Shown: one piece after another, positions 10,749-55,725 of the stretch
Layout of the letters: each line of letters starts with the position of its first letter
How positions within the stretch are numbered: the stretch's first letter is position 1
Origin: an uncultured Candidatus Binatia bacterium
GTDB lineage: Bacteria > Desulfobacterota > Binatia > Bin18
Direction: 5' to 3'
Assembly: GCA_965200965.1 (NCBI GenBank)
Contig: OZ241744.1
Location: 3,520,562-3,584,561 of the forward strand
DNA length: 64,000 nt
Translations under genes and position numbers: made by a program
Notes under the pieces: generated by a model
The model's input: the letters and a program-made list of their open reading frames with translations, nothing else
Databases searched by the model: none
Told to the model about the DNA's origin: nothing

Positions 10749-11855
10749 CTAGGCAATCGCGTAGAGTTCGGCAGCGTTGCCGCCGACGATCCTGGCTATG
10801 TCGCCTTCCCGCATAGCGTCAAACGCCCCAGCGATGAACTCGCGCGAGCGCGGCCACGGCGAATCGGTATGGGGATAGTCTGAGGACCACATGATCTGCT
10901 CGGTGCCGACCGCTTGGCGGGTGAACTCGACATTGCTGGTCTCAAACTGAAAGGTGGCCCAGATGTTCCGCGTGATGTACTCGCTGGGCAACATCGACAG
11001 GGTCAGCCCTTCGATGTGACGCAGCCGGTCATAGGCGTGGTCGAGCCGATACATGAAGTGCGGCAGCCACGACACGTCATTTTCTGCTGAGATGACTTTC
11101 AGCCTGGGGAAGCGCTCAAACACGCCACCGGTGATCATGTCGGCCAGGGTGAGCTGGATTTCTTGGGGCAGGCGCATATAGCCGAACAGAACCCGGCGGC
11201 GACTGAAACGGTTGCCACCGCGGCCGGTCAGGATGTGCAGCGACAGCGGCATGTTCAGCTCTTGGGCGGCGGCCCAGAACGGATCATAGACCGGGTCGCT
11301 GTAGGGGCGGTCTTCGGGCGGGGAGCCCCAGATCAGCGTACCCCGCAGGCCCGTGTTGGCGATCCGTTCCAGTTCTTTGACGCCGGCCGGAATGTCTTCG
11401 AGGGTGATGGCCCCAAGGCCGATGAGGCGCTTGGGATCATAGCTGCAATACTCCGCTGCCCAGTCGTTGAAGGCGGTAAAGCTGGCGGCACGCAGTTCGG
11501 CATCGTCAAGACCGAACAGCAGCATACCCATTGAGGTGTACAGAGCCTCAGCGCTGACCCCGTCGCGGTCCTGTTCTTTGAGGCGTTCGGCTGGGTCCCA
11601 GACGCTCTTGGGGGCAACCTCAAAGCCTCTTTTCAGATGTTCGGGCAGTTCCTCAGAACTTTTGCCCGAGCCAAAAAAGCCGCCGACCTGAACCGGTTGG
11701 ATATTCTCACACATGAACCACTCGCCGGGCCGGCCTTTATACCCTTGTTGGGTGTGTGGTGCCCGGTCACGAAACTTGGCGTCAATACGTTCGGCCCACA
11801 TCGTCGGTGGTTCGACAAAGTGCGAGTCGGCAGAAATAATCCGATAAGCTGTCAT
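10749..11855 (-). CDS. amidohydrolase-2 family metal-dependent hydrolase (ACMSD-like)
   Basis: ISADSHFVEP metal-binding start and WSSDYPH near the C-terminus. 368 aa. Confidence 0.8.
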   Translation of the reverse strand: MTAYRIISADSHFVEPPTMWAERIDAKFRDRAPHTQQGYKGRPGEWFMCENIQPVQVGGFFGSGKSSEELPEHLKRGFEVAPKSVWDPAERLKEQDRDGVSAEALYTSMGMLLFGLDDAELRAASFTAFNDWAAEYCSYDPKRLIGLGAITLEDIPAGVKELERIANTGLRGTLIWGSPPEDRPYSDPVYDPFWAAAQELNMPLSLHILTGRGGNRFSRRRVLFGYMRLPQEIQLTLADMITGGVFERFPRLKVISAENDVSWLPHFMYRLDHAYDRLRHIEGLTLSMLPSEYITRNIWATFQFETSNVEFTRQAVGTEQIMWSSDYPHTDSPWPRSREFIAGAFDAMREGDIARIVGGNAAELYAIA

Positions 11856-12339
11856 GGCACTCCCCTCCTTGTGGCTTAGAATCTGGTGAGTTCAGCTAGC
11901 CTAGCGCGCCTAGCGGGAACGGGCAAGTGAGAGGTTCGGGTCCTGTTGGGAGTGATTACCCGAAGAAAGATTGCCATGACTGAACTCGCCATACTCGGTA
12001 CCGGGATCGCGTTCGCTAGCCCTATCCTTGCCGGGCAGCGTAGGGTGCGGTGTTTTGATTAAAAATTTGAAAATCTTTTCCCGCGTTTTGCATAAGTTCA
12101 GATTATAATAAATCCGCGTATCTTTACCCCCCCCCAGAAAATTCAATAAAATCAGTAACTTACACGATTTTGCAAGATTTGTAGATCCTGGTTTTGTGCG
12201 AGGCTGTTGCAGTAAGGCGGGGAGCGGCCTGACAGCCGGGGAGCGGGGCCTCTTGAGCCGAGTTCGTTGTGCGCCGGCGTCTCTTCTAGTATGGTTTTGC
12301 CCCAGCTAAGCCCCCGCCCTCTCACCGTATTTCTGAGTC

Positions 12340-13167
12340 GTGATTTCAAGAACTGACACCCGTCCGTTCTCCTTTCACCTGGATGAAACCTTTGAAAAGT
12401 ACCTGATCGCCCTGTACCGGCGAAAAGACCTGCTTCTCTACTTGGCGACATCTGGGCTCAAAGCCCAGTACCGTAACACTGCCCTGGGCTATCTGTGGTG
12501 GTTGCTTGACCCTCTGCTCGGGGTGCTGATCTATTATTTTGTGATAGCGGTGGTGTTTCGCCAGGGTGGCCCTGACTATGGGCCCTTTCTGGTCATCGGC
12601 CTGATTGTCTGGCAGTGGTTTGACTCGAGCCTGTCCTTGGCCTGCCGGTCTATCGCTTCCCAGGCCGGTATTATCACCCAGGTGTACCTGCCAAAGGCGA
12701 TTTTTCCGCTTGGCGCAGCCCTGTCGCAGTTGATCAATTTTGGTTTTGGTCTGGCGATTATTGCCCTGTTCGGGATTTTTTTTCAGTTCAGACCCGGCTT
12801 GCCCCTGGTGTGGCTGCCGTATATCATCCTGGTGCAGTTTGTGTTCGTGTCCGCCCTTGGCCTTGTGCTGGCCTATGTGTCGGTGTTTGTCCGTGATGCC
12901 GAGAATGTGACGAGTTATGTGTTGCGGTTGTGGTTCTTTGGCTCGCCGGTGATCTGGTCGGAGGAGGTCTTGGCCGGGCGGGCGGGCTGGATCGTGGAAT
13001 GGAACCCGATGGCGTATTTTCTGGCTGCGTATCGCGCGGTGTTCATGGCCCAGTCGCCCCCGGATTATGGGATTTTAGCCCTCATCGGCGGTCTATCGAC
13101 CCTGCTCCTTGTGTATATGACCTACCATTTCAGCCAGCACGAACATAAGATGATCAAGGTCTTGTGA
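12340..13167 (+). CDS. wzm: ABC-2 type polysaccharide export permease
   Basis: N-terminal YRRKDLLLYLATSGLKAQYRNTALGYLWWLLDPLL signature followed by 6 TM-like segments. The stop overlaps the next gene's start (GTGATG). The GTG start at 12340 is tentative. Confidence 0.8.
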   Translation: MISRTDTRPFSFHLDETFEKYLIALYRRKDLLLYLATSGLKAQYRNTALGYLWWLLDPLLGVLIYYFVIAVVFRQGGPDYGPFLVIGLIVWQWFDSSLSLACRSIASQAGIITQVYLPKAIFPLGAALSQLINFGFGLAIIALFGIFFQFRPGLPLVWLPYIILVQFVFVSALGLVLAYVSVFVRDAENVTSYVLRLWFFGSPVIWSEEVLAGRAGWIVEWNPMAYFLAAYRAVFMAQSPPDYGILALIGGLSTLLLVYMTYHFSQHEHKMIKVL

Positions 13168-14720
13168 TGGCCTCCTTCGCGCCTTCCTCTGCCATTGTCC
13201 GGCCTCAAACGGTACCGCCCGAGGTCCTGCTGCAAGCCTCTGGAGTCGGGGTTGAGTATGTCCTCGGCAACAGACGAGAGGATGTGAAATCGCTGACCCA
13301 TAATCTGTTTCGCCTCCACCGGCGGCAGACCTTCTGGGCCTTGCACGATGTCAACCTTGTCGGCCGCGCCGGCGAGGTGGTGGGCATCATCGGGGCAAAC
13401 GGAGTGGGGAAAACGACGCTGTGTCGGACCCTGTCCGGGCTGCTGCGGCCTGACCGTGGCCGGGTCGAGACCGCCGGCAGGGTGCTGGCCCTGCTGTCCC
13501 TGGGCACGGGTTTCAACCACCAGCTTTCAGGCCGCGAGAACATTTTTCTCAATGGCATGATGCTGGGCGTATCTCAACGGCGTCTCGCCGAACTCTTCCC
13601 CCAGATTGTGGCCTTCTCTGAATTGGAGCGTTTTATTGATCAGCCACTCAAGTCCTACTCGAGTGGGATGGTGGCACGGCTCGGTTTCAGCATTGCCGCC
13701 AGCCTGGATCCCGAGATTCTGATTCTTGATGAAACGCTCAGCACGGGCGATCTGGCCTTCTCCGAGAAAGCCGGGCAGAGGATGCATGAGCTGACCCGGC
13801 AGGCAAAGCTGGTCATTGTCGTGACCCATCGGCTCCCGTTTGTTGAGACCTACTGCACCCGGGCGGTGTGGATTGATGGGGGAATGGTCCGGGCGAGCGG
13901 GTCTGCCCGGGAGGTTGTTGGGCGGTATAGACAGGCGCTTCCGCCCCAGGCTCCCGCTAGGCAGCCCGTCAACCTGCCGGAGACCACCTCCATGCCGGGG
14001 TCTAGGCCGGTCGCTGTTGCCCGTCATCTCGGGGTGCAGTTTGCCTTGCGGCCGGCCGGCACGAATGTCAGGCGGTGGTCGTTATTCAGGAAAAAACCCG
14101 TCTTTGAGGCGCTGCGGGATGTGTCTCTTGAGGTATTTGAGGGGGATATTCTGGGCATCATCGGCCCCAACGGTGCCGGCAAGACAACCCTGTGTCGTGT
14201 CCTCAGCGGCCTGTTACGAGCCGACACCGGCCACATCAGTGTTGCGGGCGACATGAGCGCGCTGCTGACGTTGGGTGTGGGGTTTCACGAGCAACTCAGT
14301 GGGCGGGATAACGTGTATCTTAGCGGCATGATGCTGGGCCTCCAGAAAAAGCGGCTGACCGTTCTATACCCCCAGATTATCAAGTTTGCCGGGCTTCAGG
14401 ACGCCATCCATCTGCCCATCAAGCACTATTCGTCGGGGATGCGGGCCAGGCTCGGCTTCAGTGTCGCAGCCATGATCCAGCCGGATGTGTTCATCATTGA
14501 CGAGGCGCTCAACGCAGGCGATGCCGCCTTCTCCGAGCGGGCCAGCGGTAAGCTCCACGACCTCATCGCCAGCGCCAAAGCGGTGATGGTCGTGACACAC
14601 AACCTGGACTTTGTTATACGGGTGTGTACCCGGGCCGTGTGGCTGGAGGCCGGCGCGGTGCGGTTTAGTGGCAGCCCGGCCGAGGCGGTAGACCTGTATC
14701 GGCAGACGGCCCGGTGCTGA
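13164..14720 (+). CDS. wzt: polysaccharide ABC exporter ATPase with two fused nucleotide-binding domains
   Basis: Two complete NBDs. NBD1: GANGVGKTT, YSSGMVARLGF, ILILDETLSTGD, VVTH. NBD2: GPNGAGKTT, YSSGMRARLGF, VFIIDEALNAGD, VVTH. No C-terminal carbohydrate-binding module. Confidence 0.8.
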   Translation: MMASFAPSSAIVRPQTVPPEVLLQASGVGVEYVLGNRREDVKSLTHNLFRLHRRQTFWALHDVNLVGRAGEVVGIIGANGVGKTTLCRTLSGLLRPDRGRVETAGRVLALLSLGTGFNHQLSGRENIFLNGMMLGVSQRRLAELFPQIVAFSELERFIDQPLKSYSSGMVARLGFSIAASLDPEILILDETLSTGDLAFSEKAGQRMHELTRQAKLVIVVTHRLPFVETYCTRAVWIDGGMVRASGSAREVVGRYRQALPPQAPARQPVNLPETTSMPGSRPVAVARHLGVQFALRPAGTNVRRWSLFRKKPVFEALRDVSLEVFEGDILGIIGPNGAGKTTLCRVLSGLLRADTGHISVAGDMSALLTLGVGFHEQLSGRDNVYLSGMMLGLQKKRLTVLYPQIIKFAGLQDAIHLPIKHYSSGMRARLGFSVAAMIQPDVFIIDEALNAGDAAFSERASGKLHDLIASAKAVMVVTHNLDFVIRVCTRAVWLEAGAVRFSGSPAEAVDLYRQTARC

Positions 14721-14746: not shown

Positions 14747-17700
14747 ATGCAGATCATCGTTCTGGGGATGCACCGGTCGGGCACATCCGTCCTGACCCGG
14801 CTGCTCAATCTGATGGGGGCCTCTGTTGGGGTGGAAGGGAACCTGATAGAACCCACCGGGGAGAACGCCAAAGGCTATTGGGAACGCCTCGATATCTATG
14901 CGCTCCATCAAGAGGTGCTGACGGCTGTTGGAGCGGACTGGTACAAGGTCAGTCAGTTTGAACCCGGTCGCCTGAGTGCTGAGCAGCGCGCGGCTTTTAG
15001 TGCTCGGGCGCGGAACATTCTCTCTAAGCTTGATGCCCATCGTCCCTGGGTGCTGAAAGATCCCAGGCTGTGTGTGTTGCTGCCGCTGTGGCAGGAGTTA
15101 CTGGAAGCTCCGATCTATGTGCATATCTGGCGCAACCCACTCGAGGTGGCCCAATCGCTGCGCACCTGGAAGGGCTTCCCGATCCGATTTGGGATAGCGT
15201 TGTGGGAGCAGCATAATTTGGCCGCCCTGCACCATACTCGTGGCTTCCCCCGCTTGCTGGTGAGTCACCGGGACCTGATGCAGCGCCCGGTTCAGACTGT
15301 TCGGACCTTCTATAAGGACCTCGTAGCCCTAGGGGTCCCCAGGCTCGGCTGTCCGGGTGAGCGAGAGATTACATCTTTTATTGAGGCTGCTCTGTACCGG
15401 GAGCGGGGTGGCATCAAGTGCCAGAAGCAGTTCGTTAATCAAGCCCAAGCCAAGCTGCTGCGGGCTTTGGAAAAGCGGCGGGTTCTGCAATGGAAGTCCC
15501 TGCCAGCACTCTCAGCGGGTAGCCACGAGACTCTGGTTGAATATGAGGAACGGGCGGCGGCAGAGGCGCGGCGGGCGGCGGAGGTTGAAGCGTTAGAGGG
15601 GCGCGTAGGGGCGGCGGAGGCGGCGCGGGCGGCGGAGGTAGGGGAGTTACAGGGGCAGGTGGCGGCGGCAGAGGCGCGGCGGGCGGCGGAGGTTGAAGCG
15701 TTAGAGGGGCGCGTAGGGGCGGCGGAGGCGGCGCGGGCGGCGGAGGTAGGGGAGTTACAGGGGCAGGTGGCGGCGGCAGAGGCGCGGCGGGCGGCGGAGG
15801 TTGAAGCGTTAGAGGGGCGCGTAGGGGCGGCGGAGGCGGCGCGGGCGGCGGAGGTAGGGGAGTTACAGGGGCAGGTGGCGGCGGCAGAGGCGCGGCGGGC
15901 GGCGGAGGTTGAAGCGTTAGAGGGGCGCGTAGGGGCGGCGGAGGCGGCGCGGGCGGCGGAGGTAGGGGAGTTACAGGGGCAGGTGGCGGCGGCAGAGGCG
16001 CGGCGGGCGGCGGAGGTTGAAGCGTTAGAGGGGCGCGTAGGGGCGGCGGAGGCGGCGCGGGCGGCGGAGGTTGAAGCGTTAGAGGGGCGCGTAGGGGCGG
16101 CGGAGGCGGCGCGGGCGGCGGAGGTAGGGGAGTTACAGGGGCAGGTGGCGGCGGCAGAGGCGCGGCGGGCGGCGGAGGTTGAAGCGTTAGAGGGGCGCGT
16201 AGGGGCGGCAGAGGCGCGGCGGGCGGCGGAGGTTGAAGCGTTAGAGGGGCGCGTAGGGGTGGCGGAGGCGGCGCGGGCGGCGGAGGTAGGGGAGTTACAG
16301 GGGCAGGTGGCGGCGGCAGAGGCGCGGCGGGCGGCGGAGGTTGAAGCGTTAGAGGGGCGCGTAGGGGCGGCGGAGGCGGCGCGGGCGGCGGAGGTAGGGG
16401 AGTTACAGGGGCAGGTGGCGGCGGCAGAGGCGCGGCGGGCGGCGGAGGTTGAAGCGTTAGAGGGGCGCGTAGGGGCGGCAGAGGCGCGGCGGGCGGCGGA
16501 GGTTGAAGCGTTAGAGGGGCGCGTAGGGGTGGCGGAGGCGGCGCGGGCGGCGGAGGTAGGGGAGTTACAGGGGCAGGTGGCGGCGGCAGAGGCGCGGCGG
16601 GCGGCGGAGGTTGAAGCGTTAGAGGGGCGCGTAGGGGCGGCGGAGGCGGCGCGGGCGGCGGAGGTAGGGGAGTTACAGGGGCAGGTGGCGGCGGCAGAGG
16701 CGCGGCGGGCGGCGGAGGTTGAAGCGTTAGAGGGGCGCGTAGGGGCGGCAGAGGCGCGGCGGGCGGCGGAGGTAGGGGAGTTACAGGGGCAGGTGGCGGC
16801 GGCAGAGGCGCGGCGGGCGGCGGAGGTTGAAGCGTTAGAGGGGCGCGTAGGGGCGGCAGAGGCGCGGCGGGCGGCGGAGGTTGAAGCGTTAGAGGGGCGC
16901 GTAGGGGCGGCGGAGGCGGCGCGGGCGGCGGAGGTAGGGGAGTTACAGGGGCAGGTGGCGGCGGCAGAGGCGCGGCGGGCGGCGGAGGTTGAAGCGTTAG
17001 AGGGGCGCGTAGGGGCGGCAGAGGCGCGGCGGGCGGCGGAGGTTGAAGCGTTAGAGGGGCGCGTAGGGGCGGCAGAGGCGCGGCGGGCGGCGGAGGTTGA
17101 AGCGTTAGAGGGGCGCGTAGGGGCGGCGGAGGCGGCGCGGGCGGCGGAGGTAGGGGAGTTACAGGGGCAGGTGGCGGCGGCAGAGGCGCGGCGGGCGGCG
17201 GAGGTTGAAGCGAGTGAGCAGACGGCGGCAACGGAACGTGAGGCGATCATCGCCCTGTTCCACAATTCGCATAGCTGGCGCATAGCCGCTCCACTCCGAG
17301 TCATAGGGCGAGTCTGGCGAGCGATAGGCTGGCGGGGCCGCGGGCTTTTGAGCCAGATCGCCCGACCAATCTATTATCGAGCCCCCCTCCCGTTTGCTAC
17401 CAAGGTCTGGCTCAAGGAAAGCCTTTTCACCGTTGCCCCGCTGCTGTTCCGGCATACTATTGCCTACCGGGACTGGACGCAGAGCCGGGCAGCGGAGGTG
17501 ATAGCATTACGCGAAGAGTTAGCAACGAGTGAAGCGCGGCGGGCGGCCGAGGAGGAAGCGCGGCGGGCGGCCGAGGAGGAAGCGCGGCGGGCGGCCGAGG
17601 AGGAAGCGCGGCGGGCGGCCGAGGAGGAAGCGCGGCGGGCGGCCGAGGAGGAAGCGCGGCGGGCGGCCGAGGAGGAAGCGCGGCGGGCGGCCGAGGAGGA

Positions 17701-20700
17701 AGCGCGGCGGGCGGCCGAGGAGGAAGCGCGGCGGGCGGCCGAGGAGGAAGCGCGGCGGGCGGCCGAGGAGGAAGCGCGGCGGGCGGCCGAGGAGGAAGCG
17801 CGGCGGGCGGCCGAGGAGGAAGCGCGGCGGGCGGCCGAGGAGGAAGCGCGGCGGGCGGCCGAGGAGGAAGCGCGGCGGGCGGCCGAGGAGGAAGCGCGGC
17901 GGGCGGCCGAGGAGGAAGCGCGGCGGGCGGCCGAGGAGGAAGCGCGGCGGGCGGCCGAGGAGGAAGCGCGGCGGGCGGCCGAGGAGGAAGCGCGGCGGGC
18001 GGCCGAGGAGGAAGCGCGGCGGGCGGCCGATACGACTTTATCCGCCTTGTACGTCGCGGAAGCGGCGGACTCGATCAATCCGAAAACTCTGCCCGTGAAA
18101 TTGATCGCGTTTTACTTGCCGCAATACCATCCGATTCCTGAAAACGACGAGTGGTGGGGGACAGGCTTCACCGAGTGGACGAACGTCACCAAAGCTAGGC
18201 CGAACTACGAAGGGCATTATCAGCCACGTCGACCCGCGGACCTGGGCTTCTACGACCTGCGGGTGCCCGAGGTGATGGAGCAGCAGGCCGCTCTGGCGCG
18301 TCGCTACGGCCTCTCTGGGTTCTGTTACTACTACTATTGGTTCGAAGGGAAACGGCTGCTGGAAATGCCGCTGGAGCGCATGTTAGCGACCGGCCAGCCG
18401 GACTTTCCTTTCTGCCTGGCGTGGGCCAACGAGAACTGGACCCGCCGCTGGGATGGTACCGAACGCGAGATTCTGCTCGCCCAGCACCACAGCGACGCGG
18501 ACGATATGGCTGTCATCCGTGATCTGATGCGGTATTTCCGACATCCCAACTACATCCGCATCAACGGCAAGCCCTTGCTCCTGATCTATAGAATTGTCTT
18601 ATTTTCCGATATCCGGCGCACGGTGACGCGCTGGCGGGAGGTGTGTCAACGGGAGGGGATTGGCGACATCTACCTAGCCATGAACGCGACATTTGAATAC
18701 GTCGGTGCCGATGTAGACCCTGCTGTCTACGGCCTGGATGCCGTTGTTGAACATCCTCCCCATTACAGGGAGACGCCTATTGAAATACCTGGCCGACGAC
18801 TCAATCCAGACTATGTTGGGCGGGTTGTTGATTACTCAGAGTTCGCCAAGGTTTTTTTTGAAAGAGAATTCCCGGACCATGTCATAAGATTCCGCGGGGT
18901 GATGTCAAGTTGGGACAACACGCCTCGTCAGCAGAATAGGGCTAATATTTTTCACGGGTCCGACCCGGAGGCTTACCAGGCTTGGCTCCAAGCTGCCATC
19001 CGGCAGACAACTACCCGGTACTCGGGGGACGAGCGCTTGGTGTTTATCAACGGCTGGAACGAATGGGGAGAAGGATCGTACCTGGAACCGGATCGCAGAT
19101 ATGGGTTCGCCTACCTGGAGGCGACCCGAGCGGCACTCCTGGCCACGGGCGCGAAATTGCTGCCTGTCACTGTCCGGGAAGACCCGACGGGGTCTCCTGA
19201 AACGGTCGCTTGTCCTCGAGTCTCAATTATCGTCCCGAACTATAACCATGAAAGATTCCTCAAACAACGGCTCGAAAGCATCTACTCGCAGCAGTTTACG
19301 GATTTTGAGGTCATCATCCTTGACGATGCATCCACCGATGGAAGCATGGACATTATTGCGCAATATCAGGAGCGGTTTTCGAACAAGACAAGGGTGATCC
19401 GCAACCAGAAGAACTCCGGGAACCTGTTTTCACAGTGGCTCGCCGGACTCGACTTGGCTCAAGGAGAGCTTGTCTGGATCGCGGAAAGCGATGATTTCGC
19501 AGATGAGAATTTCCTGAGAGACATGGTTGCGGAGTTCTCTGACGAGGCCGTACTTCTGGCCTATGGAGACACCCAATATGTTAATACGGAAGGGGAGTTC
19601 GTTCCGGGCATATCCTCCTATCTTGAAGGCACTGGCTTCAATCAATGGAAAGACTCCTACAAAAAGTCTTCCTGGAGCGAATTCAATGGTCCCTTTGGCG
19701 TGAAGTGCATTATCGCCAATGTGTCTGGGACCGTTTTCAGAAAGCCTCTCCTTTCACCCCAGGAGCGCGAAACATTGGTCAAGTTTTTGATCTGTGGCGA
19801 TTGGTATTTCTACAGCCTGATTGCAAGAGGGGGATATATATCCTTTGTCAAGAGCGCGAAGAACCATTTCCGCCTTCGTGACGACAGTAACTCGAGGAGT
19901 TCCTATGGCGGAAGACAGTTTTACAGTGAACATTTCGACATCCTATCAAATATCAAGAAGATCTACGGCGTTTCCGAGGCTATCGTCGAGCGGCATTTTC
20001 ATGCGTTAGAGGAGGTGTATGCCGCCTGTGTGGAGCCGGGGCGATTCAGTCTTCACGAGGTCTTTCCATACCACGAGATAGTGGAGAAGCAAGATGGTTT
20101 CTTGCGGATATGCATTGCGAGTTTGGGCTTCTATTCTGGAGGCGGCGAGGTCGTGTCCATCGACCTTGCGAACAGGTTGCGTGCTTTGGGCCACAGTGTG
20201 ACCTTCTTTGCCTTGGGATGGGAACTTGGTCAATTCAGTCAGGAACAGCGGAGGCGACTGCGTAGCGACATCCCCGTATGCTATCGGGAGACCATGCAGG
20301 GCACTTTCCAGGACCTGCAAGAGGAACTCGGTTGCCAGATTCTGAATACGCACTGCATCAGCGTGGATCTCTTCTTATTTGAGGAGATGTACAACCCGCT
20401 GGGTCTTTGGGTACTGACCCAACACGGCTCATACGAGGCCCTTTTGAGTCCCGCGAATGGCCAGGCTGCGGATTTTTTCAGAAACTACGAGAAAGCCTTT
20501 CAGTTTGTGGATTTTGTCAAAAACAAGGTGGATCACTGGGTACTCGTGTCGAAAAAAAGCGTAGACATATTGTCATCTATGGGTATAGGCTCGACAGCCT
20601 CCACACACATACCAAATGGAGTCCCTGATCCCGTGAACAGCCTTTCTCTTAGGAAAATCAGCCGAGACGCCTTGAATATTCCAGCCGAGGCATTTGTTTT

Positions 20701-21325
20701 CATTATCGCTTCCAGAGCAATCCCGGAAAAAGGATGGGAACACGCCATTTGCGCAATGGAGGCAACTCAAAAGCAAGCAAACCAAGAACTGTATTTGATC
20801 CTGCTCGGGGAGGGTCCAGAAGCCGATCGGCTCCGTAACGAGAACATCGATCAACACCATCTTCGTTTTCTCGGTTATCAAGCCGATGTAGCGAGTTTCA
20901 TTCGGCTCGCCGACGCCGGGGTGATGCCAACATATTATCAGGGAGAAACCAGCTCGCTTTTTGCGATGGAATGTCTCATGGAGGGGATTCCCGTTATTAT
21001 CAGCGACGTATCCGATTGCCGGGATACGGTATCCGACGCCACCGGGAGGAGCGCCGGCATTGTGATCAGGCCCAAGAAATCGTCTGCGACATTTGAGAGC
21101 GATCTCTCCAAGGCAATGATTTGCCTTGTGAATTCACGCCAGGCTTACCGGGAGATGTGTTCCGTGGCGGTCAGGATGAAGCAAAAATTTCTCCTGGATA
21201 CAAATGTCCAGCGCTATGAAGAACTCTTTTCCAAACTCCAATCAGGCGCTTCTTGTAACTTGAACTCAAGAAAGCAAGCAGATTGGGAGGAGATGGCAGA
21301 GGTGAATAATGCGAAATCTGCGTAG
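14747..21325 (+). CDS. 2,192-aa multidomain glycan assembly protein: sulfotransferase, two tandem-repeat helical arrays, WbsX-type domain, GT2 and GT4
   Basis: ATG at 14747 after GAGAGGA. Domains in order: sulfotransferase with PAPS loop GMHRSGTS and VLKDPR (to about 15470); 18-aa repeats 15557-17212; linker with SWRIAAPLR; 8-aa repeats 17531-18030; WbsX-type domain ([39 protein letters not shown], about 18090-19190); GT2 ([24 protein letters not shown], about 19210-19900); GT4-type ([16 protein letters not shown], about 20100-21250). TAG at 21323-21325. Confidence 0.85.
   Translation: [2192 protein letters not shown]
15557..17212 (+). repeat. about 30.7 tandem copies of a 54-bp (18-aa) unit in two alternating variants (108-bp super-unit)
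   Basis: Variant A is [18 protein letters not shown] and variant B is [18 protein letters not shown]. The 108-bp period was verified (gcgcgtagggg at 15601 and 15709). A 270-bp block AAB'AB is duplicated (gcgtaggggt at 16251 and 16521). The array is in frame within the giant CDS. Confidence 0.95.
17531..18030 (+). repeat. about 20.8 perfect tandem copies of a 24-bp (8-aa, EARRAAEE) unit
   Basis: gaagcgcggcgggcggccgaggag repeats without any visible substitution from 17531, and the last copy is truncated at 18030. In frame within the giant CDS. Confidence 0.95.
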
Positions 21326-21593
21326 AGCAGAGGGTCAACGGGCTGACAGCGGGCTGATATTGCGCCCGGCTTGCGCACGTCACCAGATAATCTCCGATCA
21401 GGCATGGACTGATTTGTTGATCCGCAGCATTAGTGAATCAGTCATTGACGGAACCCGCTTTCCGGCGTTTTCGAAAGAGGAGCTACAAGATGTGGGTTGG
21501 GGTCGACACCTTCGTTTTTTGGCGTGATATCGACCCTAATAACCGGGTTGCGTTTTTATCGGCACCACGAACACAATCCGCTATATCGACTGG

Positions 21594-22739
21594 ATGGCTT
21601 CTCCGGACAGGGAAATAAACGAATTGAATCTCCGGTACCTGAAGATCGCAAGAGACGCCGCCGGAGATATTGATGTGTTGAAAGAGAGATTTAACGCCGG
21701 TCAGCATGTGTTTATTCCGAAGTGCCCCAGACCCAGATCTCAAACCCTTGGAACATACGAGGAAGCGATTATTTCAGCAAAGCACATAAAGTCCAGATGG
21801 TGTTCGTTCTTTTCCGTCCACGAATATATCGACGATCCAGAGCCATGCGACGAAACCGTGGCCATTTTGTTAGAAAGCGCTCTCCAGATAAAAGAAAATC
21901 AGCGTCCAGATTCGGGTACATCAGCGAAGAAGCCTGGGAATCGGGAGAGAGCAATACATAAACTCATCAACCTGCCCGCACTGCGGACCGCTTTTGAAAG
22001 TTTCAGCGGGAATACGCCTTTCAACCATTGCGTGTGCGATGGATTTTTTCGGAGCGAGATCGTCCACGCCCTCGAACAAGACTTTCCCCCCTACGAAGAT
22101 ACAATCTGGCACGAGTACGACAACGCCGTTGAGAAGAAAAAGTCGACAAATATCTGGAACTTTTTTCCTCCTACAACCTATAGGATATTCTCTGTCCTCA
22201 CTAGTCCAGAGTTTCTGCGTGTCATTGCCGAATTGACCGGCATCGTTCCCCTCTTTGCCGACCCGGGCCTCAACAGCGGCGGGTGGCATATCCTCAAAAA
22301 AGGCGGGAAGCTCAACCCTCATCTCGATTTCAATATCCATCCGAAATCAGGCTTGCAGCGAAAACTTAATCTCGTCGTTTTTCTGCCCCTGGAGTGGCGG
22401 TCGGAGTGGGGCGGTGAACTCGGCTTCTGGGAGGCAGACCAGGCAAAAAGTGCCCCGGGCCGGCTGCTCAAAACTATTCCTCCCCAATTCAATCGGGCCG
22501 TGTTCTTTGACACCACCCAGCAGAGTTGGCACGGCCTGTCCAGCCCGGTCCAGTGCCCAGAGGGTGTTTTTCGCAAAAGTCTGTCGGTCTGCTATCTCAC
22601 CGACCCCCCACCTGAAACAGACCACAGGGGCAAAGCGCACTTTGCCCCGACACAGGAACAAGAGGGCGACCGAGCGGTGGCCGAGTTGATTCAAAAGCGC
22701 GCCTCAGTCTCGACCGCATCGTCGGTCTACAAGCCCTGA
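21594..22739 (+). CDS. 2OG-Fe(II) oxygenase family protein with an unrelated N-terminal extension of about 130 aa
   Basis: The C-terminal 250 aa carry PFNHCVCDGFF, the HxD-type motif GGWHILKKGGKLNPHLDF, a distal SWHG and RKSLSVCY. The N-terminal part and the true start are uncertain. Confidence 0.65.
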   Translation: MASPDREINELNLRYLKIARDAAGDIDVLKERFNAGQHVFIPKCPRPRSQTLGTYEEAIISAKHIKSRWCSFFSVHEYIDDPEPCDETVAILLESALQIKENQRPDSGTSAKKPGNRERAIHKLINLPALRTAFESFSGNTPFNHCVCDGFFRSEIVHALEQDFPPYEDTIWHEYDNAVEKKKSTNIWNFFPPTTYRIFSVLTSPEFLRVIAELTGIVPLFADPGLNSGGWHILKKGGKLNPHLDFNIHPKSGLQRKLNLVVFLPLEWRSEWGGELGFWEADQAKSAPGRLLKTIPPQFNRAVFFDTTQQSWHGLSSPVQCPEGVFRKSLSVCYLTDPPPETDHRGKAHFAPTQEQEGDRAVAELIQKRASVSTASSVYKP

Positions 22740-25774: not shown

Positions 25775-27913
25775 CTACGGCCCGTCCCCCTCAGCGGCCA
25801 GAAAACCGCGGATGTCGGCTTGGCTCAGCTCGGTCCAGCATTCGGCCAGCAGCACCGCGGCCTGAACCGAGCTGCGTTCGCTCTCGCCAATGAGTTCCCG
25901 GCCCACCGGGTATGTGTGCGCCGGGCTGCGCAGGACCAGCCCGCGGCTGTTCAGCGACCAAGCCGCCCGCCCGAGCAGGACCGGGCCGGGAGGCGAAGCA
26001 AATGACGCGGCCAAGCCGGCCAGCAGCGGATCATCACCGTCAAGGATAAACCGACACCGGGGGCCGACCGTGTCGCGCAGGACCCGGATTTCGTCCTGGA
26101 GGGCGTCGAGCAGCTCGACATCGGCGCTATAGCTGGGGGTCAGGGTATTCACAATTGCAATATCGGGCCGCACGGTCCGCAGCAGGCGACGCATGTCGCC
26201 GCGCTGGCGGATCCCCAACTCCACCACCAGAACGTCCAGGGGCGTGGCCGAAAACAGCGCGCTCCAACTCGCCCGGCCCAGCGCGTGGAGGACCGACCAG
26301 ACCGATTTGGGCGCAATCTCGATGTTGAGCACGGCCAGCGGCAGGCCGATCTCGGTATTATACGAGCGCGGGTTGGTCTGGACCCGGTAGCGAGCGGCCA
26401 GCAGCTCGGCCAGCAGACGCTTGGTGACAGTTTTGCCCCGACTGCCGGTAATAGCAATTATCAGCGGTTTTTTGCGACGCAGAAAGAGCCGGGCCAGCAG
26501 GTGCAGATAGGGGATGGCCAGACTGCGCAAGCAGGGAACGGACCGCGGCGGAGGCGTCTGGGACCTTGACTTGGCGTGAGCCGGCCGACCCGTAGCGGAC
26601 ACCTGGGCCGGGCGGGCCGGATATGCGGTGGGCTGGAAATAGCGGGTCAGGCGGGCAAACGCCCGCTCAATATCGGCCGGCTCACGGCCGCAGTTGATCC
26701 GCACATGCGCCTCCCCGCTCGGCCCAAAGGCCAGGCCCGGGACCAGGGCAACTTTTGCCTGTTCGAGCAGCTCGCGGGTGAGCCGCCGCGAGTCGTGTGC
26801 CCAGCGGACCGTGTCTTTGACCCGGGGAAAGACAAAATACGAACCTTCGGGTTTTTGATAGTCAAAGACGTGCGACAAGCGATCGAGGTGTTCCAGGCTG
26901 AGGTCGCGCCGCTCTTTGAAGGTCCGGCGAAACCGGGCGATGTGGTCGGACCCATATTTGAGGGCGGCAATGGCGGCATACTGCGAGACAACCGGGGCGC
27001 AGGTGACTAAGGCGTCGTGGACCTTCAAGATTTCTCGGGCGCAGAGGGCGGCGGTATGCAGGTAGCCGACCCGCCAGCCGGTCATGCCGTAGGCTTTGGA
27101 GAAGGTAAACACCCGCACTACCCGATGGCGGACGGCCGACACCTGGGCCGGGCTGAAATACGGCTCCGGGCCGTAGACAAAATCTTTGTACGCCTCATCG
27201 ATCAGCAGCAACAGATTGTGCCGCTCGGCCAGGGCGATCAGCGCCCGGGTCTGGGCCTCGGAAAAGACTGTGCCGGTCGGATTATTGGGGTTGCAGTACA
27301 GAATCAGGCGTGTGCGGGCCGATATACACGCCTCAAAGGCGTCGGGGTCAAAGGCAAAGTTGTGCTCTTCGTCCAGGGCGGCAAAGCGCGGGATACAGCC
27401 GGCCAGGCGGACTGCCTCCTGGTAGGAGGCATAGCTCGGCGAGGCCAGGATGACCTCGTCGCCGGGCTGGGTCAGGGCCAGCAGGCTGGCCGTAATAGCC
27501 TCTATTGAGCCGCACGAGACGATGATCTCGTTGTCCGGGTCATAGTGCATGCCCTCGCGCAGCAGGGACTCGGCAATCAACTCACGGAGCTGTGGCAGCC
27601 CCGGGGTCAGCGAGTATTTGGCGCAGGCACCCTCGGCTATTTTCTGCTGAACAAAGTCTTTGATCGGCTCCGGTGTGTCAAAACTGGGAATCCCCTGGGC
27701 CAGCGACACCACGTTGGGAATCTGGCCGGCGGCCAACTCCATCTCCTTGATGGGCGATAGCTTGAGCCGGGTGGCGCGGGCGGATTTCCAGTGTTTCACC
27801 TTGGGTAGCGACTCCTCACCGGAACGGGGCACGCCGGCCAGCCTAGCGAGGCGAGCCGGGCTTTGCAATGTGAGGGCCTTGGGGGTATACCCGGCAGAGT
27901 GAATGATGTTCAT
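25775..27913 (-). CDS. fusion ORF: class I/II PLP aminotransferase + MurF-like Mur ligase central domain
   Basis: ATG at 27913. Aminotransferase part to ...ERAFARLTRYFQ (NPNNPTG, FSKAYGMTGWRVGY). A P/A/R-rich linker of about 45 aa follows. The Mur ligase part has the P-loop IAITGSRGKTVTK, NTEIGLP, VVELGIRQRGDM and IAIVNTL. No stop codon separates the halves. Confidence 0.7.
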   Translation of the reverse strand: MNIIHSAGYTPKALTLQSPARLARLAGVPRSGEESLPKVKHWKSARATRLKLSPIKEMELAAGQIPNVVSLAQGIPSFDTPEPIKDFVQQKIAEGACAKYSLTPGLPQLRELIAESLLREGMHYDPDNEIIVSCGSIEAITASLLALTQPGDEVILASPSYASYQEAVRLAGCIPRFAALDEEHNFAFDPDAFEACISARTRLILYCNPNNPTGTVFSEAQTRALIALAERHNLLLLIDEAYKDFVYGPEPYFSPAQVSAVRHRVVRVFTFSKAYGMTGWRVGYLHTAALCAREILKVHDALVTCAPVVSQYAAIAALKYGSDHIARFRRTFKERRDLSLEHLDRLSHVFDYQKPEGSYFVFPRVKDTVRWAHDSRRLTRELLEQAKVALVPGLAFGPSGEAHVRINCGREPADIERAFARLTRYFQPTAYPARPAQVSATGRPAHAKSRSQTPPPRSVPCLRSLAIPYLHLLARLFLRRKKPLIIAITGSRGKTVTKRLLAELLAARYRVQTNPRSYNTEIGLPLAVLNIEIAPKSVWSVLHALGRASWSALFSATPLDVLVVELGIRQRGDMRRLLRTVRPDIAIVNTLTPSYSADVELLDALQDEIRVLRDTVGPRCRFILDGDDPLLAGLAASFASPPGPVLLGRAAWSLNSRGLVLRSPAHTYPVGRELIGESERSSVQAAVLLAECWTELSQADIRGFLAAEGDGP

Positions 27914-27944
27914 TTTGGCCAGTTGCCAGACAGGAGAGCAGACT

Positions 27945-28649
27945 ATGGCAGAACGATTTTTTTCTGAGGATGAGCTGTGCGAGATGGGCAAACGCTCGGT
28001 CGATCGGCTGACCGAGGCGATTGAGGCCGGGGAGAGCGAGGCGGCCAAACGTATCGGTCAGCGGATGTATAAGGAGTTTCTGAGTATGCACGACCTGTAC
28101 CGTAACTGGACGACGGCTATGCTGAGCGAGATCGGCCGCCGATTCGGGGATGAGGTGCTTGATGAGATCATGACCGCGGGGGTCAAAGCTTGGTGGCTGC
28201 CCAACCTGGACAAGATGCCCCAAGGGGCGGATAAGCTGTCCCAGCGGATTAAGATGTTCGTGGCCGGCCTGCGCGGCCATCTCCAGCCGATGGAGATCAC
28301 AGAGGACGACGACAAGGTCGTCATTCAAATGCAGCCCTGCGGCAGCGGTGGACGGCTGGTTCTGGAAGGCAGATATGACGGGCCGGACGGCTTTCTGAAG
28401 GTTGAGAAACCCCAGCGAATGACCTATAACCGGGCCAACTTCCCGGTCTACTGCGCCCACGAACCTCCGATGGAGTTGGTGGACATTGAGAAGAACGGCA
28501 AGCCGTTTGTAGTGGTTGAGCCGGCCGCGGTGTTGGGCAAGCAGCACTGCTCGTTCATTATCTACAAAGACGCGAGCAAGGTGCCGGCCAAATACTACGA
28601 ACGGCTGGGTTTGCAGAAGCCGGAAACAGCCGAGGAGAAGGCCGATTGA
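27945..28649 (+). CDS. hypothetical protein
   Basis: ORF of 234 aa from MAERFF. Coding-like composition, with Cys/His-containing motifs QPCGSGGR and PVYCAHEPP. Family not recognised. Confidence 0.6.
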   Translation: MAERFFSEDELCEMGKRSVDRLTEAIEAGESEAAKRIGQRMYKEFLSMHDLYRNWTTAMLSEIGRRFGDEVLDEIMTAGVKAWWLPNLDKMPQGADKLSQRIKMFVAGLRGHLQPMEITEDDDKVVIQMQPCGSGGRLVLEGRYDGPDGFLKVEKPQRMTYNRANFPVYCAHEPPMELVDIEKNGKPFVVVEPAAVLGKQHCSFIIYKDASKVPAKYYERLGLQKPETAEEKAD

Positions 28650-53143: not shown

Positions 53144-54205
53144 ATGAGCTTGAGCGTATCACAAATTTTTCCAGGAATCGAAACCGGCTTAAACAACATG
53201 GGATTCCTTTTCGGTGCGGGTACGTCAAAAGAGGCAGGGTTTCCGCTTATGCAAGATATTACCAGGACAGTGGTCGGCAATCTGTCTCGCGTGAATAGAG
53301 AAACACTGGACAATCTCCTCAGCCAGGAAAGGTTGAGCTACGACGAGACCACTGGAGACCCGAACATCGAAATCCTTTCAGATTCTGTAAGGAGGTATTT
53401 TGTGGATACACAGAACAATAGCTACAGTGAGCTAGAAAGCGAAATTCGTAGAGCAATCGTTGGAACGATTCTCGATGTTAGAAACCCTGATCTGACCTAC
53501 CATATCCAATTTCTCAAGGCTCTAAAAAAAAGAGCAGGCGGTATGCCGCCTAGTACGCCTATTATCACAATCTTTACTACAAATTACGACATTCTTTTTG
53601 AGCTTGCTGCTGGAGAAGTGGGAGTTCGGATCGAGACGGGATTCGATGGCCCCTTGAGTAGATTTTTCAACCCCACAGTTTTCAATCTGCACAGGGGCGA
53701 AATAAGTAGTGGTGGAAGGAAGACAACCTTTGAGGAGAGCCACAAATTATGGATCAATCTCATCAAACTTCACGGCTCGATATCTTGGTTTAAGAAGGGA
53801 AATGCAACAATTGAGAGTGGGATTAACCTCCTTGACCAATGTCGATCACGAGAGATGATTCTTCCTCGCCGCCAAAAGATCATGGACACCTTAGCCCCGC
53901 CTTTCGATTCCTTATTCACTCGCTCTTCGCAGATGCTTGGATCGATCTGTAAGTATCTGGCAAGTTGTGGATTCAGTTTCAGTGACCAACATATCAACGA
54001 TCAATTGATTTTTCCAAAATTGCGGGAAGGAAGGATTCAACTAACCGCGCTTTGTGGAGAAACTCCCGAATGTTTGAACGATCTAAGACAGTTTGGGGCG
54101 TTTTGTGGGGCATTTCCCGATAACTGTTATATTGACGGCAAGGATACAAACAAAGGAACAGACCTTTGGAAATTCAGCGAATTTGTTCGCCTCTTGGAAC
54201 CATAA
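53144..54205 (+). CDS. SIR2-like (SIR2_2 family) defence-associated NADase candidate
   Basis: Motifs FLFGAGTSKEAGFP, IFTTNYDILFE, KLHGSISW and CGFSFSDQHIND. Low-GC segment. Confidence 0.75.
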   Translation: MSLSVSQIFPGIETGLNNMGFLFGAGTSKEAGFPLMQDITRTVVGNLSRVNRETLDNLLSQERLSYDETTGDPNIEILSDSVRRYFVDTQNNSYSELESEIRRAIVGTILDVRNPDLTYHIQFLKALKKRAGGMPPSTPIITIFTTNYDILFELAAGEVGVRIETGFDGPLSRFFNPTVFNLHRGEISSGGRKTTFEESHKLWINLIKLHGSISWFKKGNATIESGINLLDQCRSREMILPRRQKIMDTLAPPFDSLFTRSSQMLGSICKYLASCGFSFSDQHINDQLIFPKLREGRIQLTALCGETPECLNDLRQFGAFCGAFPDNCYIDGKDTNKGTDLWKFSEFVRLLEP

Positions 54206-54225
54206 TGACAAAAGGGGTTTGCAAT

Positions 54226-55725
54226 ATGAGCGACTATAAAATCGGAGAAGTGATAAGCGTTTCTGGCGAAAGAGTCTTCATCACCTTACTTGACTATGAC
54301 GATAAATCGGAGACAGGCGTTCCTTCGACCATGATGGTAAATGTTCTAACAGAAAACGGCCCGACTCCGTTACTGATCGGTCAGCCAGGAACTTTTGTGT
54401 CCATTGCACTATCCTCCGGTAAACTTCTGGCGATGATTACAACAATTGACATGAAGGAGACAGAATTGTTACAGGCTGAAATCAAGCTGCGGGGTATGAA
54501 CGCGGAGGCGGTAGACCTGATCTACTTGGACCCGCCCTTCAACAGCAATCAGACCTATGCCGCACCCATCGGCTCCGAGGCGGCAGGTGCGGCCTTCAAA
54601 GATACCTGGACGCTCGATGATGTAGACGTGGCTTGGCACGGCGAGATTGCCGAGCAGGAGCCGGCCCTCTACGCGATTATTGATGCTGCCGGCCTCAGCC
54701 ACTCGCCGGGCATGAAGAGCTACCTGATTATGATGGCGGTGCGATTGCTGGAGATGCGCCGGGTGCTCAAGCCGACCGGCTCCATCTACTTGCATTGCAA
54801 TCAAGATGCCGGCCACTACCTGAAACTCCTCATGGATGCCGTGTTCGGGAAGAAGGCGTTTATCACAGAAGTGGTGTGGAATTACGGCACTCCATCCGGG
54901 GGGCGCTCCGCTGGGAAAAAGCCGATCAAAGTGCATGACGTGCTGTTGGTCTATGCAAAGCGGTATGGGCAACACCTGTACAACCGGCAATTCACGCCGT
55001 ACAGCGAGCAATACAAAGCTTGGTTCCGTCACGACGATGGCGACGGGCGATTGTATCAGACCCGTTCACGGAAAGGCAAAATCGTCAAGCAATACCTTGA
55101 TGAAAGCCCTGGAATCCCTCTTTCAACCTGTTGGTCAGACATTATGCAGATATACGGACAGCAAGGCTGGTTTCCCACCACACAAAAGGAGCGCACCGGC
55201 TACCCCACCCAGAAGCCCCTTGCGCTGTTAGAGCGCATCATCACCGCCAGCAGCAATCCCGGCGACATCGTGCTGGACCCCTTCTGCGGCTGCGCCACGG
55301 CCCTCGTCACCGCGGAACACCTGAACCGCCAATGGGTCGGCATTGACCTCTCCCCGGTGGCCGCCCGGCTGGTCAAGAGCCGCCTGGAGAAAGAGATGGG
55401 GCTGTTCTACGATGTGCATCACCGCCAGGACATCCCCCGGCGGAGCGACCTGGGCGAACTGCCGCACTACAAGACGCATAAGCATAGCTTGTTCGGTCGG
55501 CAGGAAGGGCTGTGCGGCGGGTGTGGTGTGGCCTTCCCGTTTCGCAACTTCACCATTGACCACATTGTCTCCCGGGCCAAGGGCGGCACGGATCATTTCG
55601 ACAACCTGCAACTGCTGTGCGGGGCGTGCAACAGCGCCAAGGGGCGGGGCACGCAGGCGGAACTCAAGGCGCGGCTGCGGGCGCAAGGGGTGATTGGGAA
55701 GGGGGCAGGGCGCAGATCGGCGTAG
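54226..55725 (+). CDS. chimeric ORF: HerA-type N-terminal HAS-barrel (about 82 aa) fused to a beta-class N4/N6 DNA methyltransferase and a C-terminal HNH nuclease
   Basis: MSDYKIGEVISVSGERVFITL...GQPGTFVSIALSSGKLLAMITTIDMKE (HerA N-terminal pattern, low GC). From about 54470, at higher GC: VDLIYLDPPFNSN (motif IV), DPFCGCATALVTAE (motif I), and HNH CGGCG...IDHIVSRAKGGTDHFDNLQLLCGACNSAKG. An alternative ATG at 54205 overlaps the SIR2 stop. Confidence 0.75.
   Translation: MSDYKIGEVISVSGERVFITLLDYDDKSETGVPSTMMVNVLTENGPTPLLIGQPGTFVSIALSSGKLLAMITTIDMKETELLQAEIKLRGMNAEAVDLIYLDPPFNSNQTYAAPIGSEAAGAAFKDTWTLDDVDVAWHGEIAEQEPALYAIIDAAGLSHSPGMKSYLIMMAVRLLEMRRVLKPTGSIYLHCNQDAGHYLKLLMDAVFGKKAFITEVVWNYGTPSGGRSAGKKPIKVHDVLLVYAKRYGQHLYNRQFTPYSEQYKAWFRHDDGDGRLYQTRSRKGKIVKQYLDESPGIPLSTCWSDIMQIYGQQGWFPTTQKERTGYPTQKPLALLERIITASSNPGDIVLDPFCGCATALVTAEHLNRQWVGIDLSPVAARLVKSRLEKEMGLFYDVHHRQDIPRRSDLGELPHYKTHKHSLFGRQEGLCGGCGVAFPFRNFTIDHIVSRAKGGTDHFDNLQLLCGACNSAKGRGTQAELKARLRAQGVIGKGAGRRSA

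Follow-up and report, generated by a model that had tools for sequence, protein, structure and literature searches.

The stretch of DNA considered here (the window) comprises 64,000 nucleotides of contig OZ241744.1 from an uncultured Candidatus Binatia bacterium, and it carries a very large gene that joins a predicted sulfotransferase, two tandem-repeat arrays and a set of glycan-synthesis modules in one polypeptide. The open reading frame (ORF) lies on the plus strand, ends at 21325 and could begin either at a GTG at 14714 or at an ATG at 14747. Because the second start (MQIIVLGMHRSGTS) coincides with the N-terminus of dozens of homologs, the gene is placed at 14747..21325 and its product at 2,192 amino acids (aa), in agreement with an earlier sequence-only reading of this DNA. 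That reading also set the gene directly behind wzm and wzt, and Pfam searches indeed put wzm, the ABC-2 type permease of a glycan exporter (12340..13167, +; ABC2_membrane, 45 bits), and wzt (13164..14720, +; ABC_tran in two stretches) immediately upstream. Transporter and biosynthesis ORF are therefore encoded together, as in the capped-glycan class. An exact look-up gave no record of an identical 2,192-aa protein, and the nearest match in a scan of species-representative genomes has 57% identity.

The head of the protein (aa 1-265; 14747..15541, +) matches Sulfotransfer_3 (PF13469) over aa 3-190 with 29.4 bits, a narrow margin above the gathering cutoff of 27. The motifs GMHRSGTS, W45-E46, K104-D-P-R107 and R129...S137 are fully or almost fully conserved across 64 homologs. 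From the roles assigned in EST and TPST, we take GMHRSGTS to be the 5'-phosphosulfate loop for 3'-phosphoadenosine 5'-phosphosulfate (PAPS) and R129...S137 to be the 3'-phosphate motif, with the spacing of the eukaryotic enzymes. The AlphaFold (AF2) model of the head has a pLDDT of 92.2 and a pTM of 0.91, and its top 30 Foldseek matches in the PDB are all PAPS sulfotransferases, including the CurM and olefin-synthase (OLS) sulfotransferases, TPST1/2, Stf9, Stf1, SULTs and StaL (E down to 1.5e-5, TM ~0.45-0.48). Pfam, the conserved motifs and the modelled fold agree in predicting that the N-terminal 265 aa are a PAPS-type sulfotransferase, as had been proposed from the letters of the sequence. 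A sulfotransferase profile run against PDB sequences returned nothing significant, and no solved or characterised close relative was found there.

Behind the head lies array 1 (15542..17212, +), which by Tandem Repeats Finder (TRF) and a unit map consists of 31 units of 18 aa, 557 aa in total. TRF delimits it at 15553-17212 with a period of 108 bp, corresponding to two subunits of 54 bp or 18 aa, and with 15.4 copies and 92% matches. The unit variants are AAEARRAAEVEALEGRVG and AAEAARAAEVGELQGQVA, and the composition is 35% A, 20% E, 12% R, 11% V, 11% G and 5% L, with no proline. In each unit the large hydrophobic residues V10, L13 and V17 form one narrow, straight seam with a period of 3.60, a value that is exact because 18 residues make five helical turns. 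Array 2 (17531..18030, +), separated from array 1 by a junction, is built of about 21 units of 8 aa (EEARRAAE); TRF gives a period of 24 bp with 20.8 copies that are 100% identical. It contains 37% Glu, 26% Arg and 38% Ala, so that 62% of its residues are charged and none is large and hydrophobic, and per residue there are 0.49 attractive i/i+4 charge pairs and no repulsive ones. From this composition and from modelling, array 2 looks like an ER/K single alpha-helix (SAH) and not like a coiled coil. Spacers of this kind are known from myosin VI/X and caldesmon. The window array appears to share their charge pairing and their lack of a seam, and differs in being bacterial, in consisting of identical 8-aa units and in standing within a glycan synthase.

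Both arrays are predicted to be helical. An AF2 model of aa 700-1470, run as a monomer and so unable to show oligomerisation, has continuous helices through both of them, with a pLDDT of about 80 in array 1 and 52-84 in array 2; the repeats are thus modelled as ordered, in line with the sequence-only reading. At 0.15 nm per residue array 1 would span about 84 nm and array 2 about 25 nm, close to the earlier estimate of roughly 80 and 25 nm, and the repeat-built predicted helix amounts to about 730 residues in total (557 aa of array 1 and a 171-aa stretch with array 2). The spacer between sulfotransferase and junction is indeed unusually long, as had been supposed: at about 600 aa it is the longest found, against about 100-400 aa in some 25 relatives, while the whole C-terminal domain of WbdD, the terminator of Escherichia coli O9a/O8, is shorter than 250 aa. 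The description of the spacer as a coiled coil is unproven. The canonical heptad core with its 3.5-residue a/d spacing is absent from both arrays, the first having a period of 3.60 and the second being ER/K-like, whereas the linkers of relatives peak at the classical heptad value of 3.50, and most repeats within them have a length that is a multiple of 7 aa. Tandem repetition is found again in coiled coils elsewhere in the family, with a tandem-repeat score of at least 20 in 17 of 168 (null maximum 5). Identity of the units at the DNA level (in array 1, 12 + 9 + 5 of 30 units of 54 bp; in array 2, 20 of 20 units of 24 bp) points to recent expansions.

The junction between the arrays (aa 823-923; 17213..17515, +) begins with the motif S-x-S-W-R-(I/L/M)-x-x-P-(L/I)-R and continues for about 60 basic and aromatic residues. 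It recurs in the sulfotransferase-headed relatives P0169, P0170, P0210, P0232, P0254, P0270 and P0273, in relatives with other heads (P0192/P0197, P0193, P0205 and P0219) and, in shortened form, at the C-terminus of the stand-alone sulfotransferase and coiled-coil proteins P0008, P0049 and P0061. Within it, aa 845-872 (nt 17279-17362, +) form an amphipathic helix whose hydrophobic moment (muH) of 0.66 is the maximum of the protein (99th percentile 0.54) and whose net charge is +5; the region is helical in the AF2 model, and there is no transmembrane segment anywhere in the 2,192 aa. By its sequence and by analogy with the C-terminal amphipathic helix of WbdD (PMC11231755), this helix fits an in-plane membrane anchor. 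The inter-array segment, suggested earlier as a membrane-association element, is accordingly the best such candidate in the protein as judged from moment and charge. Searches with the junction alone added little: a profile against a set of 5.8 billion proteins, for which the query was too short, gave one marginal match, and a metagenome scan gave five weak partial matches and no close relative.

The C-terminal half holds the presumptive polymerase. It begins with a WbsX-type module (aa 1119-1460; 18101..19126, +) that matches Glyco_tran_WbsX (PF14307) with 447 bits, followed by the core of a glycosyltransferase (GT) of family 2 with GT-A fold (aa 1493-1623; 19223..19615, +; Glycos_transf_2, 90.8 bits) and by a GT4 of GT-B fold (aa 1798-2124; 20138..21118, +; Glyco_transf_4 and Glycos_transf_1). 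All four profiles that had been expected to match (Sulfotransfer_3, Glyco_tran_WbsX, Glycos_transf_2 and Glycos_transf_1) did so. The earlier count of three glycosyltransferases stands for GT2 and GT4 only. By Foldseek the WbsX module resembles 5ngw, MANEA and Bacteroides enzymes of glycoside hydrolase family 99 (GH99), with E from 1e-9 to 1e-11 and TMt 0.56-0.62, and it carries an invariant NEWxEG, which reads NEWGEG in the window protein with E1439 and E1442 as its glutamates and resembles the EWxE catalytic motif of GH99. As modelled, it is a (beta/alpha)8 TIM barrel like that of GH99 endo-alpha-mannosidase and has no known glycosyltransferase fold, so that two canonical glycosyltransferases and one module of unproven activity are present. 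Its role in a cytoplasmic polymerase, be it transfer or hydrolysis, looks unproven despite the thousands of large synthases that contain it, and a literature search for WbsX returned only unrelated filarial antigens. The WbsX-GT2-GT4 trio itself is very common (more than 7,900 matches of 1,000-1,900 aa), and 13 of its 120 best homologs bear this sulfotransferase head.

The exporter is also unusual in form. Wzt consists of two fused nucleotide-binding domains (NBDs; aa ~30-260 and ~285-518) that are 52% identical to each other, each with Walker A, signature, Walker B and H-loop. No such double form occurs among 37 Wzt proteins near sulfotransferase loci. An exhaustive search found few colinear double Wzt proteins, e.g., P0289 (56% identity) and P0290 (47%), together with a class of 770-920-aa proteins with two NBD stretches, and the double-NBD form is accordingly rare.

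The sulfotransferase head belongs to a broad clade, with 833 matches in the protein set and at least 587 loci in species-representative genomes of many phyla; the following figures on ORF size, modules and neighbours refer to the best 80 of these loci. In them the head is followed by a coiled-coil-like tail in ORFs of 240-2,618 aa, at least 30 of which are longer than 1,000 aa and include fused GT2 or WbsX modules, and wzm-wzt lies within 10 kb in about 35. The recurring order in relatives is sulfotransferase, short heptad coiled coil, SxSWR junction and glycosyltransferases, while a second architecture, seen in Dokdonella and Rhodanobacter, has the sulfotransferase at the C-terminus. Judging from sequence, stand-alone forms end in a putative membrane element, either a hydrophobic tail (Rhodanobacter geophilus, L089) or SxSWR-type amphipathic tails (others). 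The giant architecture is not confined to the lineage of the window, since similarly large sulfotransferase-headed ORFs with GT2 or WbsX modules occur in metagenome-assembled genomes (MAGs) of a Parvibaculum sp. (L046:9869-17725, 2,618 aa) and a Hyphomonas sp. (L054:9941-16117, 2,058 aa). On the same junction-WbsX-GT2-GT4 scaffold, the head position may instead be filled by a methyltransferase (P0219 from Aminobacter sp. HY435, and P0225) or a GT2 (P0193). In these three the junction and polymerase are true homologs of those in the window protein, with 33-40% identity and the same SxSWR motif and order; they differ in their heads, in their shorter linkers and in having no ER/K array between junction and WbsX.

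Five Wzt proteins linked to such sulfotransferases carry the carbohydrate-binding module (CBM) Wzt_C, namely those of Tahibacter soli, Pelagicoccus mobilis, R. geophilus and two MAGs. The clusters of R. geophilus (L089:7757-14457) and P. mobilis (L071:7859-14859), two of these five, were scanned further. Both have the order wzm, wzt-CBM, sulfotransferase-coiled coil and glycosyltransferases, their sulfotransferase proteins end in a hydrophobic or aromatic tail, and no methyltransferase, kinase or other candidate terminator was seen in either cluster. On sequence grounds these two loci appear to combine both published hallmarks of capped glycans with a sulfotransferase as the sole candidate terminator seen.

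Natural variation at the locus could be followed in related genomes, as the window Wzm is also encoded on ten other contigs. An independent contig of 3,603,827 bp from another sample (L006) carries an intact ORF of 2,144 aa with only 4 substitutions outside the arrays. Its array 1 has 557 aa and 31 units as in the window, with a different order of the unit variants, and its array 2 has 15 units against 21; homologs with the same module order and other repeat numbers, which the earlier reading had called for, thus exist. Short-read assemblies fare worse. Scaffolds of this kind show array 1 interrupted by an N-gap, as in L004, and array 2 reduced to 3 units, and the contigs L009 and L011 (279 aa called) and L010 (324 aa) stop within or just past the start of array 1; breakage and collapse of this sort is the behaviour expected of such repeats.

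A more distant comparison is offered by a sister genome (L095:10001-20765; ENA ERZ26050812, a 780-kb contig) in which identity to the window is 89-96% for the flanking proteins, 92% for wzm, 85% for the unusual wzt and 76% for the sulfotransferase head. The spacer there has about 6 units of 18 aa (108 aa) instead of 31 (557 aa), and the unit, LEKRLATSEARRVREVQS, matches that of array 1 in the window at 9 of 18 positions. After the spacer come unrelated GT2 and GT4 modules, and the downstream genes differ from those of the window (GHMP kinase, nucleotidyltransferase and RgpF). Sequence comparison indicates that L095 is a serotype-like replacement of the polymerase half of the locus. As exporter and head are kept while ruler length and polymerase vary, the locus behaves like a serotype-variable glycan island.

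Taken as a whole, the architecture suggests a single-chain terminator-spacer-polymerase of an ABC-transporter-dependent glycan pathway, making O-antigen or a similar surface polymer, and we give this interpretation an even chance. The order of modules, as anticipated from sequence, matches that of WbbB and of Klebsiella pneumoniae ORF6-O7 as described in PMC11231755. Like the window protein, WbbB (Raoultella terrigena/K. pneumoniae O12) and ORF6 (K. pneumoniae O7) have an N-terminal modifier, a helical spacer and C-terminal glycosyltransferases in one chain, are encoded in a wzm-wzt cluster and are peripheral proteins. They differ from it in several respects: their head is a beta-Kdo transferase or a methyltransferase-kinase instead of a sulfotransferase, and the window protein has a spacer of about 557 + 171 aa built of non-heptad 18-aa and 8-aa tandem repeats, an amphipathic junction between the helices, a GH99-like module and a CBM-less Wzt. 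WbdD consists of a catalytic head, a coiled coil plus an element for membrane association at the C-terminus, and in both WbdD and WbbB coiled-coil length was shown by experiment to set chain length (PMC11231755). The WbdD layout is mirrored by the stand-alone proteins P0008, P0049, P0061 and that of L089, and again inside the window protein by sulfotransferase, array 1 and junction. There is no sequence relationship with WbdD, the modification would be sulfate instead of methyl or methyl-phosphate, and the polymerase is fused, whereas that of WbdD is recruited. As sequence kinship and a CBM are both lacking, we consider that the protein works like WbbB, ORF6-O7 and WbdD and do not file it as a member of their class.

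It can be envisaged that the junction helix would hold the protein on the cytoplasmic face of the membrane while the C-terminal modules add sugars to the non-reducing end of a lipid-linked chain. Array 1 would keep the sulfotransferase tens of nanometres away until the growing chain end arrives, whereupon the terminal sugar would be sulfated at or near the acceptor hydroxyl and extension would stop; the chain could then be exported by Wzm-Wzt. Gain or loss of DNA repeats would tune the length of the spacer and hence that of the product. The terminator-ruler-polymerase reading as such is well supported by analogy; the sulfate cap we purely infer. The established cap chemistries are methyl groups and sugars (PMC11231755). 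A precedent for this chemistry exists in animals, where sulfation of the terminal sugar is reported to end the extension of matriglycan (Sheikh et al. 2020, via PMC12514197). There HNK-1 sulfotransferase (HNK-1ST) stops a processive polymerase in the manner proposed for the window protein, although this enzyme resides in the Golgi, has neither a fused polymerase nor a spacer and acts in an unrelated context. Our literature searches found no paper that ties a sulfotransferase to chain termination, to a ruler or to a Wzt CBM; an earlier listing in a survey or review is possible (Mann, Kimber and Whitfield 2019, Glycobiology 29:822; Whitfield et al. 2020, JBC).

A number of observations weigh against a sulfate-terminated ruler. 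Array 1 has only 17% large hydrophobic residues and as much as 11% glycine, and since it is non-heptad and array 2 lacks any hydrophobic seam, the formation of an oligomeric coiled coil by the arrays is unproven. Relatives have nothing that corresponds to the additional helix between putative anchor and polymerase: their gap from junction to WbsX is about 30 aa, and the 171-aa insert of the window lineage is absent. This helix complicates the geometry of a simple ruler, and it could place the polymerase as far as about 25 nm from the anchor. No Wzt_C CBM was matched on the window Wzt, whose C-terminal half is a second NBD, and most of the 37 Wzt examined near homologous sulfotransferases are NBD-only, whereas every experimentally studied capped system has a CBM on Wzt (PMC11231755). 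As the window Wzt lacks this module, recognition of the cap probably does not control export in the classical manner. Genes for PAPS synthesis, an initiating transferase and a ligase were not found in the 64-kb window, and no biochemically characterised member of this sulfotransferase clade was found. Lastly, sulfate was not detected in the O-antigen of Aeromonas salmonicida, although a gene with a sulfotransferase domain stands between wzt and wbbB in that species (PMC4483657).

The alternative that survives best is that the sulfotransferase decorates the polymer internally or stochastically, that the helix only scaffolds or oligomerises the complex, and that length, as in K. pneumoniae O2a, follows from how polymerisation and export are balanced. 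The CBM-less Wzt of the window and the prevalence of NBD-only Wzt near homologous sulfotransferases would suit such an arrangement, as would K. pneumoniae O1, where a terminal pyruvate only diversifies the glycan and is required neither for length control nor for export (PMC11231755). About 80 nm from the polymerase would, however, be an unsuitable site for an enzyme that must act on every repeat unit. The same head position in relatives holds a methyltransferase and GT heads, which are known terminator types, and five related systems combine the sulfotransferase head with a CBM-bearing Wzt. On balance we regard decoration as unlikely.

The identity of the repeat copies raises a different possibility, namely that the arrays are recent, slippage-driven expansions of low complexity that are tolerated as flexible tethers and measure nothing. 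The 20 identical units of array 2 and the 12 + 9 + 5 identical 54-bp copies of array 1 speak for it; so do the variation in copy number between near-identical strains and the relatives that suffice with 100-400 aa and no second array. Both arrays are nevertheless in frame and helix-favouring, array 1 totals 557 aa in two strains despite a different order of unit variants, and coiled-coil length does set chain length experimentally in WbdD and WbbB (PMC11231755). We judge it quite improbable that the arrays are mere tethers.

It is extremely unlikely that this very long ORF arose as an error of assembly or by a chimeric joining of separate genes: GC content does rise to 76-81% in the arrays and drop to about 50% over 18.5-22.5 kb (flanks 60-64%), and short-read scaffolds do break in the arrays, but the same in-frame ORF stands in two independent megabase-scale contigs from different samples, and distant homologs keep sulfotransferase, coiled coil, junction, WbsX, GT2 and GT4 in one ORF. 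Among these, P0169 and P0170 have the same module order with a WbsX-GT2-GT4 part that is 57% identical, so that the GC drop near 19.2 kb, flagged in the sequence-only reading as a potential join, is not one, and a chimera at that point was rejected on the evidence of these homologs and of L006.

A more specific form of the terminator-spacer-polymerase interpretation may be formulated, in which a sulfate-capping tip rides on a rod of about 84 nm with an 18-residue period, an ER/K link of about 25 nm joins anchor and polymerase, the repeat number of each strain sets polymer length and a double-NBD transporter exports the chain in a CBM-free manner. In this entirety the model of a tunable ruler is doubtful and seems rather unlikely to us. 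If it were true, both the terminator chemistry and the physical type of ruler would be new to the ABC-transporter pathway. Apart from any model, several features set the system apart: a sulfotransferase as head, a spacer that is the longest of the family and is non-heptad and ER/K in kind, a further helix behind the anchor, an exporter with a double NBD and no CBM, and a natural allelic series of ruler lengths.

The surroundings of the gene are simple. The locus is flanked by housekeeping genes and no other glycan genes were found within the 64-kb window, which makes it a compact island of three to four genes. The possible fourth member (21594..22739, +; 2OG-FeII_Oxy_3) encodes a 2-oxoglutarate (2OG)-Fe(II) oxygenase of 381 aa with a prolyl-hydroxylase-like C-terminal domain and another 230 aa at the N-terminus. 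Its GC content is low, like that of the glycosyltransferase part, and homologs occur within 7 kb of the sulfotransferase-junction loci of the Pseudomonas MAGs L061 and L086; the gene is missing from the variant locus L095. A promoter and terminator scan gave weak hints, with promoter-like sites at 11812-12152 and a terminator-like hairpin at 21531-21550. Minus-strand ORFs within the arrays (15435-17304 and 17464-18078; 598, 621 and 204 aa) were dismissed as by-products of GC-rich, stop-poor repeats. Elsewhere in the window, a gene for a SIR2-like domain protein slightly overlaps the next one, which encodes a fusion of an N6/N4 DNA methylase with an HNH endonuclease (53144-55725, +); the pair may be a defence or restriction-modification island. 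A 757-aa ORF (25775-28048, -) shows an unusual fusion of a class I/II aminotransferase with a Mur-ligase middle domain.

Serum resistance, access of phages and properties of the envelope are all governed by how long the chains of surface polysaccharides are. To our knowledge the coiled-coil ruler is the only known mechanism by which glycans are measured, and tests of it are limited to a handful of enterobacterial systems. Against this background the locus offers a natural experiment, in that sister genomes with the same transporter and head have rulers of 108 and 557 aa, and second arrays of 15 and 21 units occur; ruler and glycan length could be compared directly across related strains or in repeat deletions. 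R. geophilus and P. mobilis look tractable as organisms in which a sulfate cap could be examined. In a role for which only classical coiled coils are on record, a spacer of non-heptad or ER/K type may be used, and the CBM-less transporter raises the question of how termination and export are coupled. Together with the clade of at least 587 loci, the locus suggests that sulfation may be a widespread terminating chemistry.

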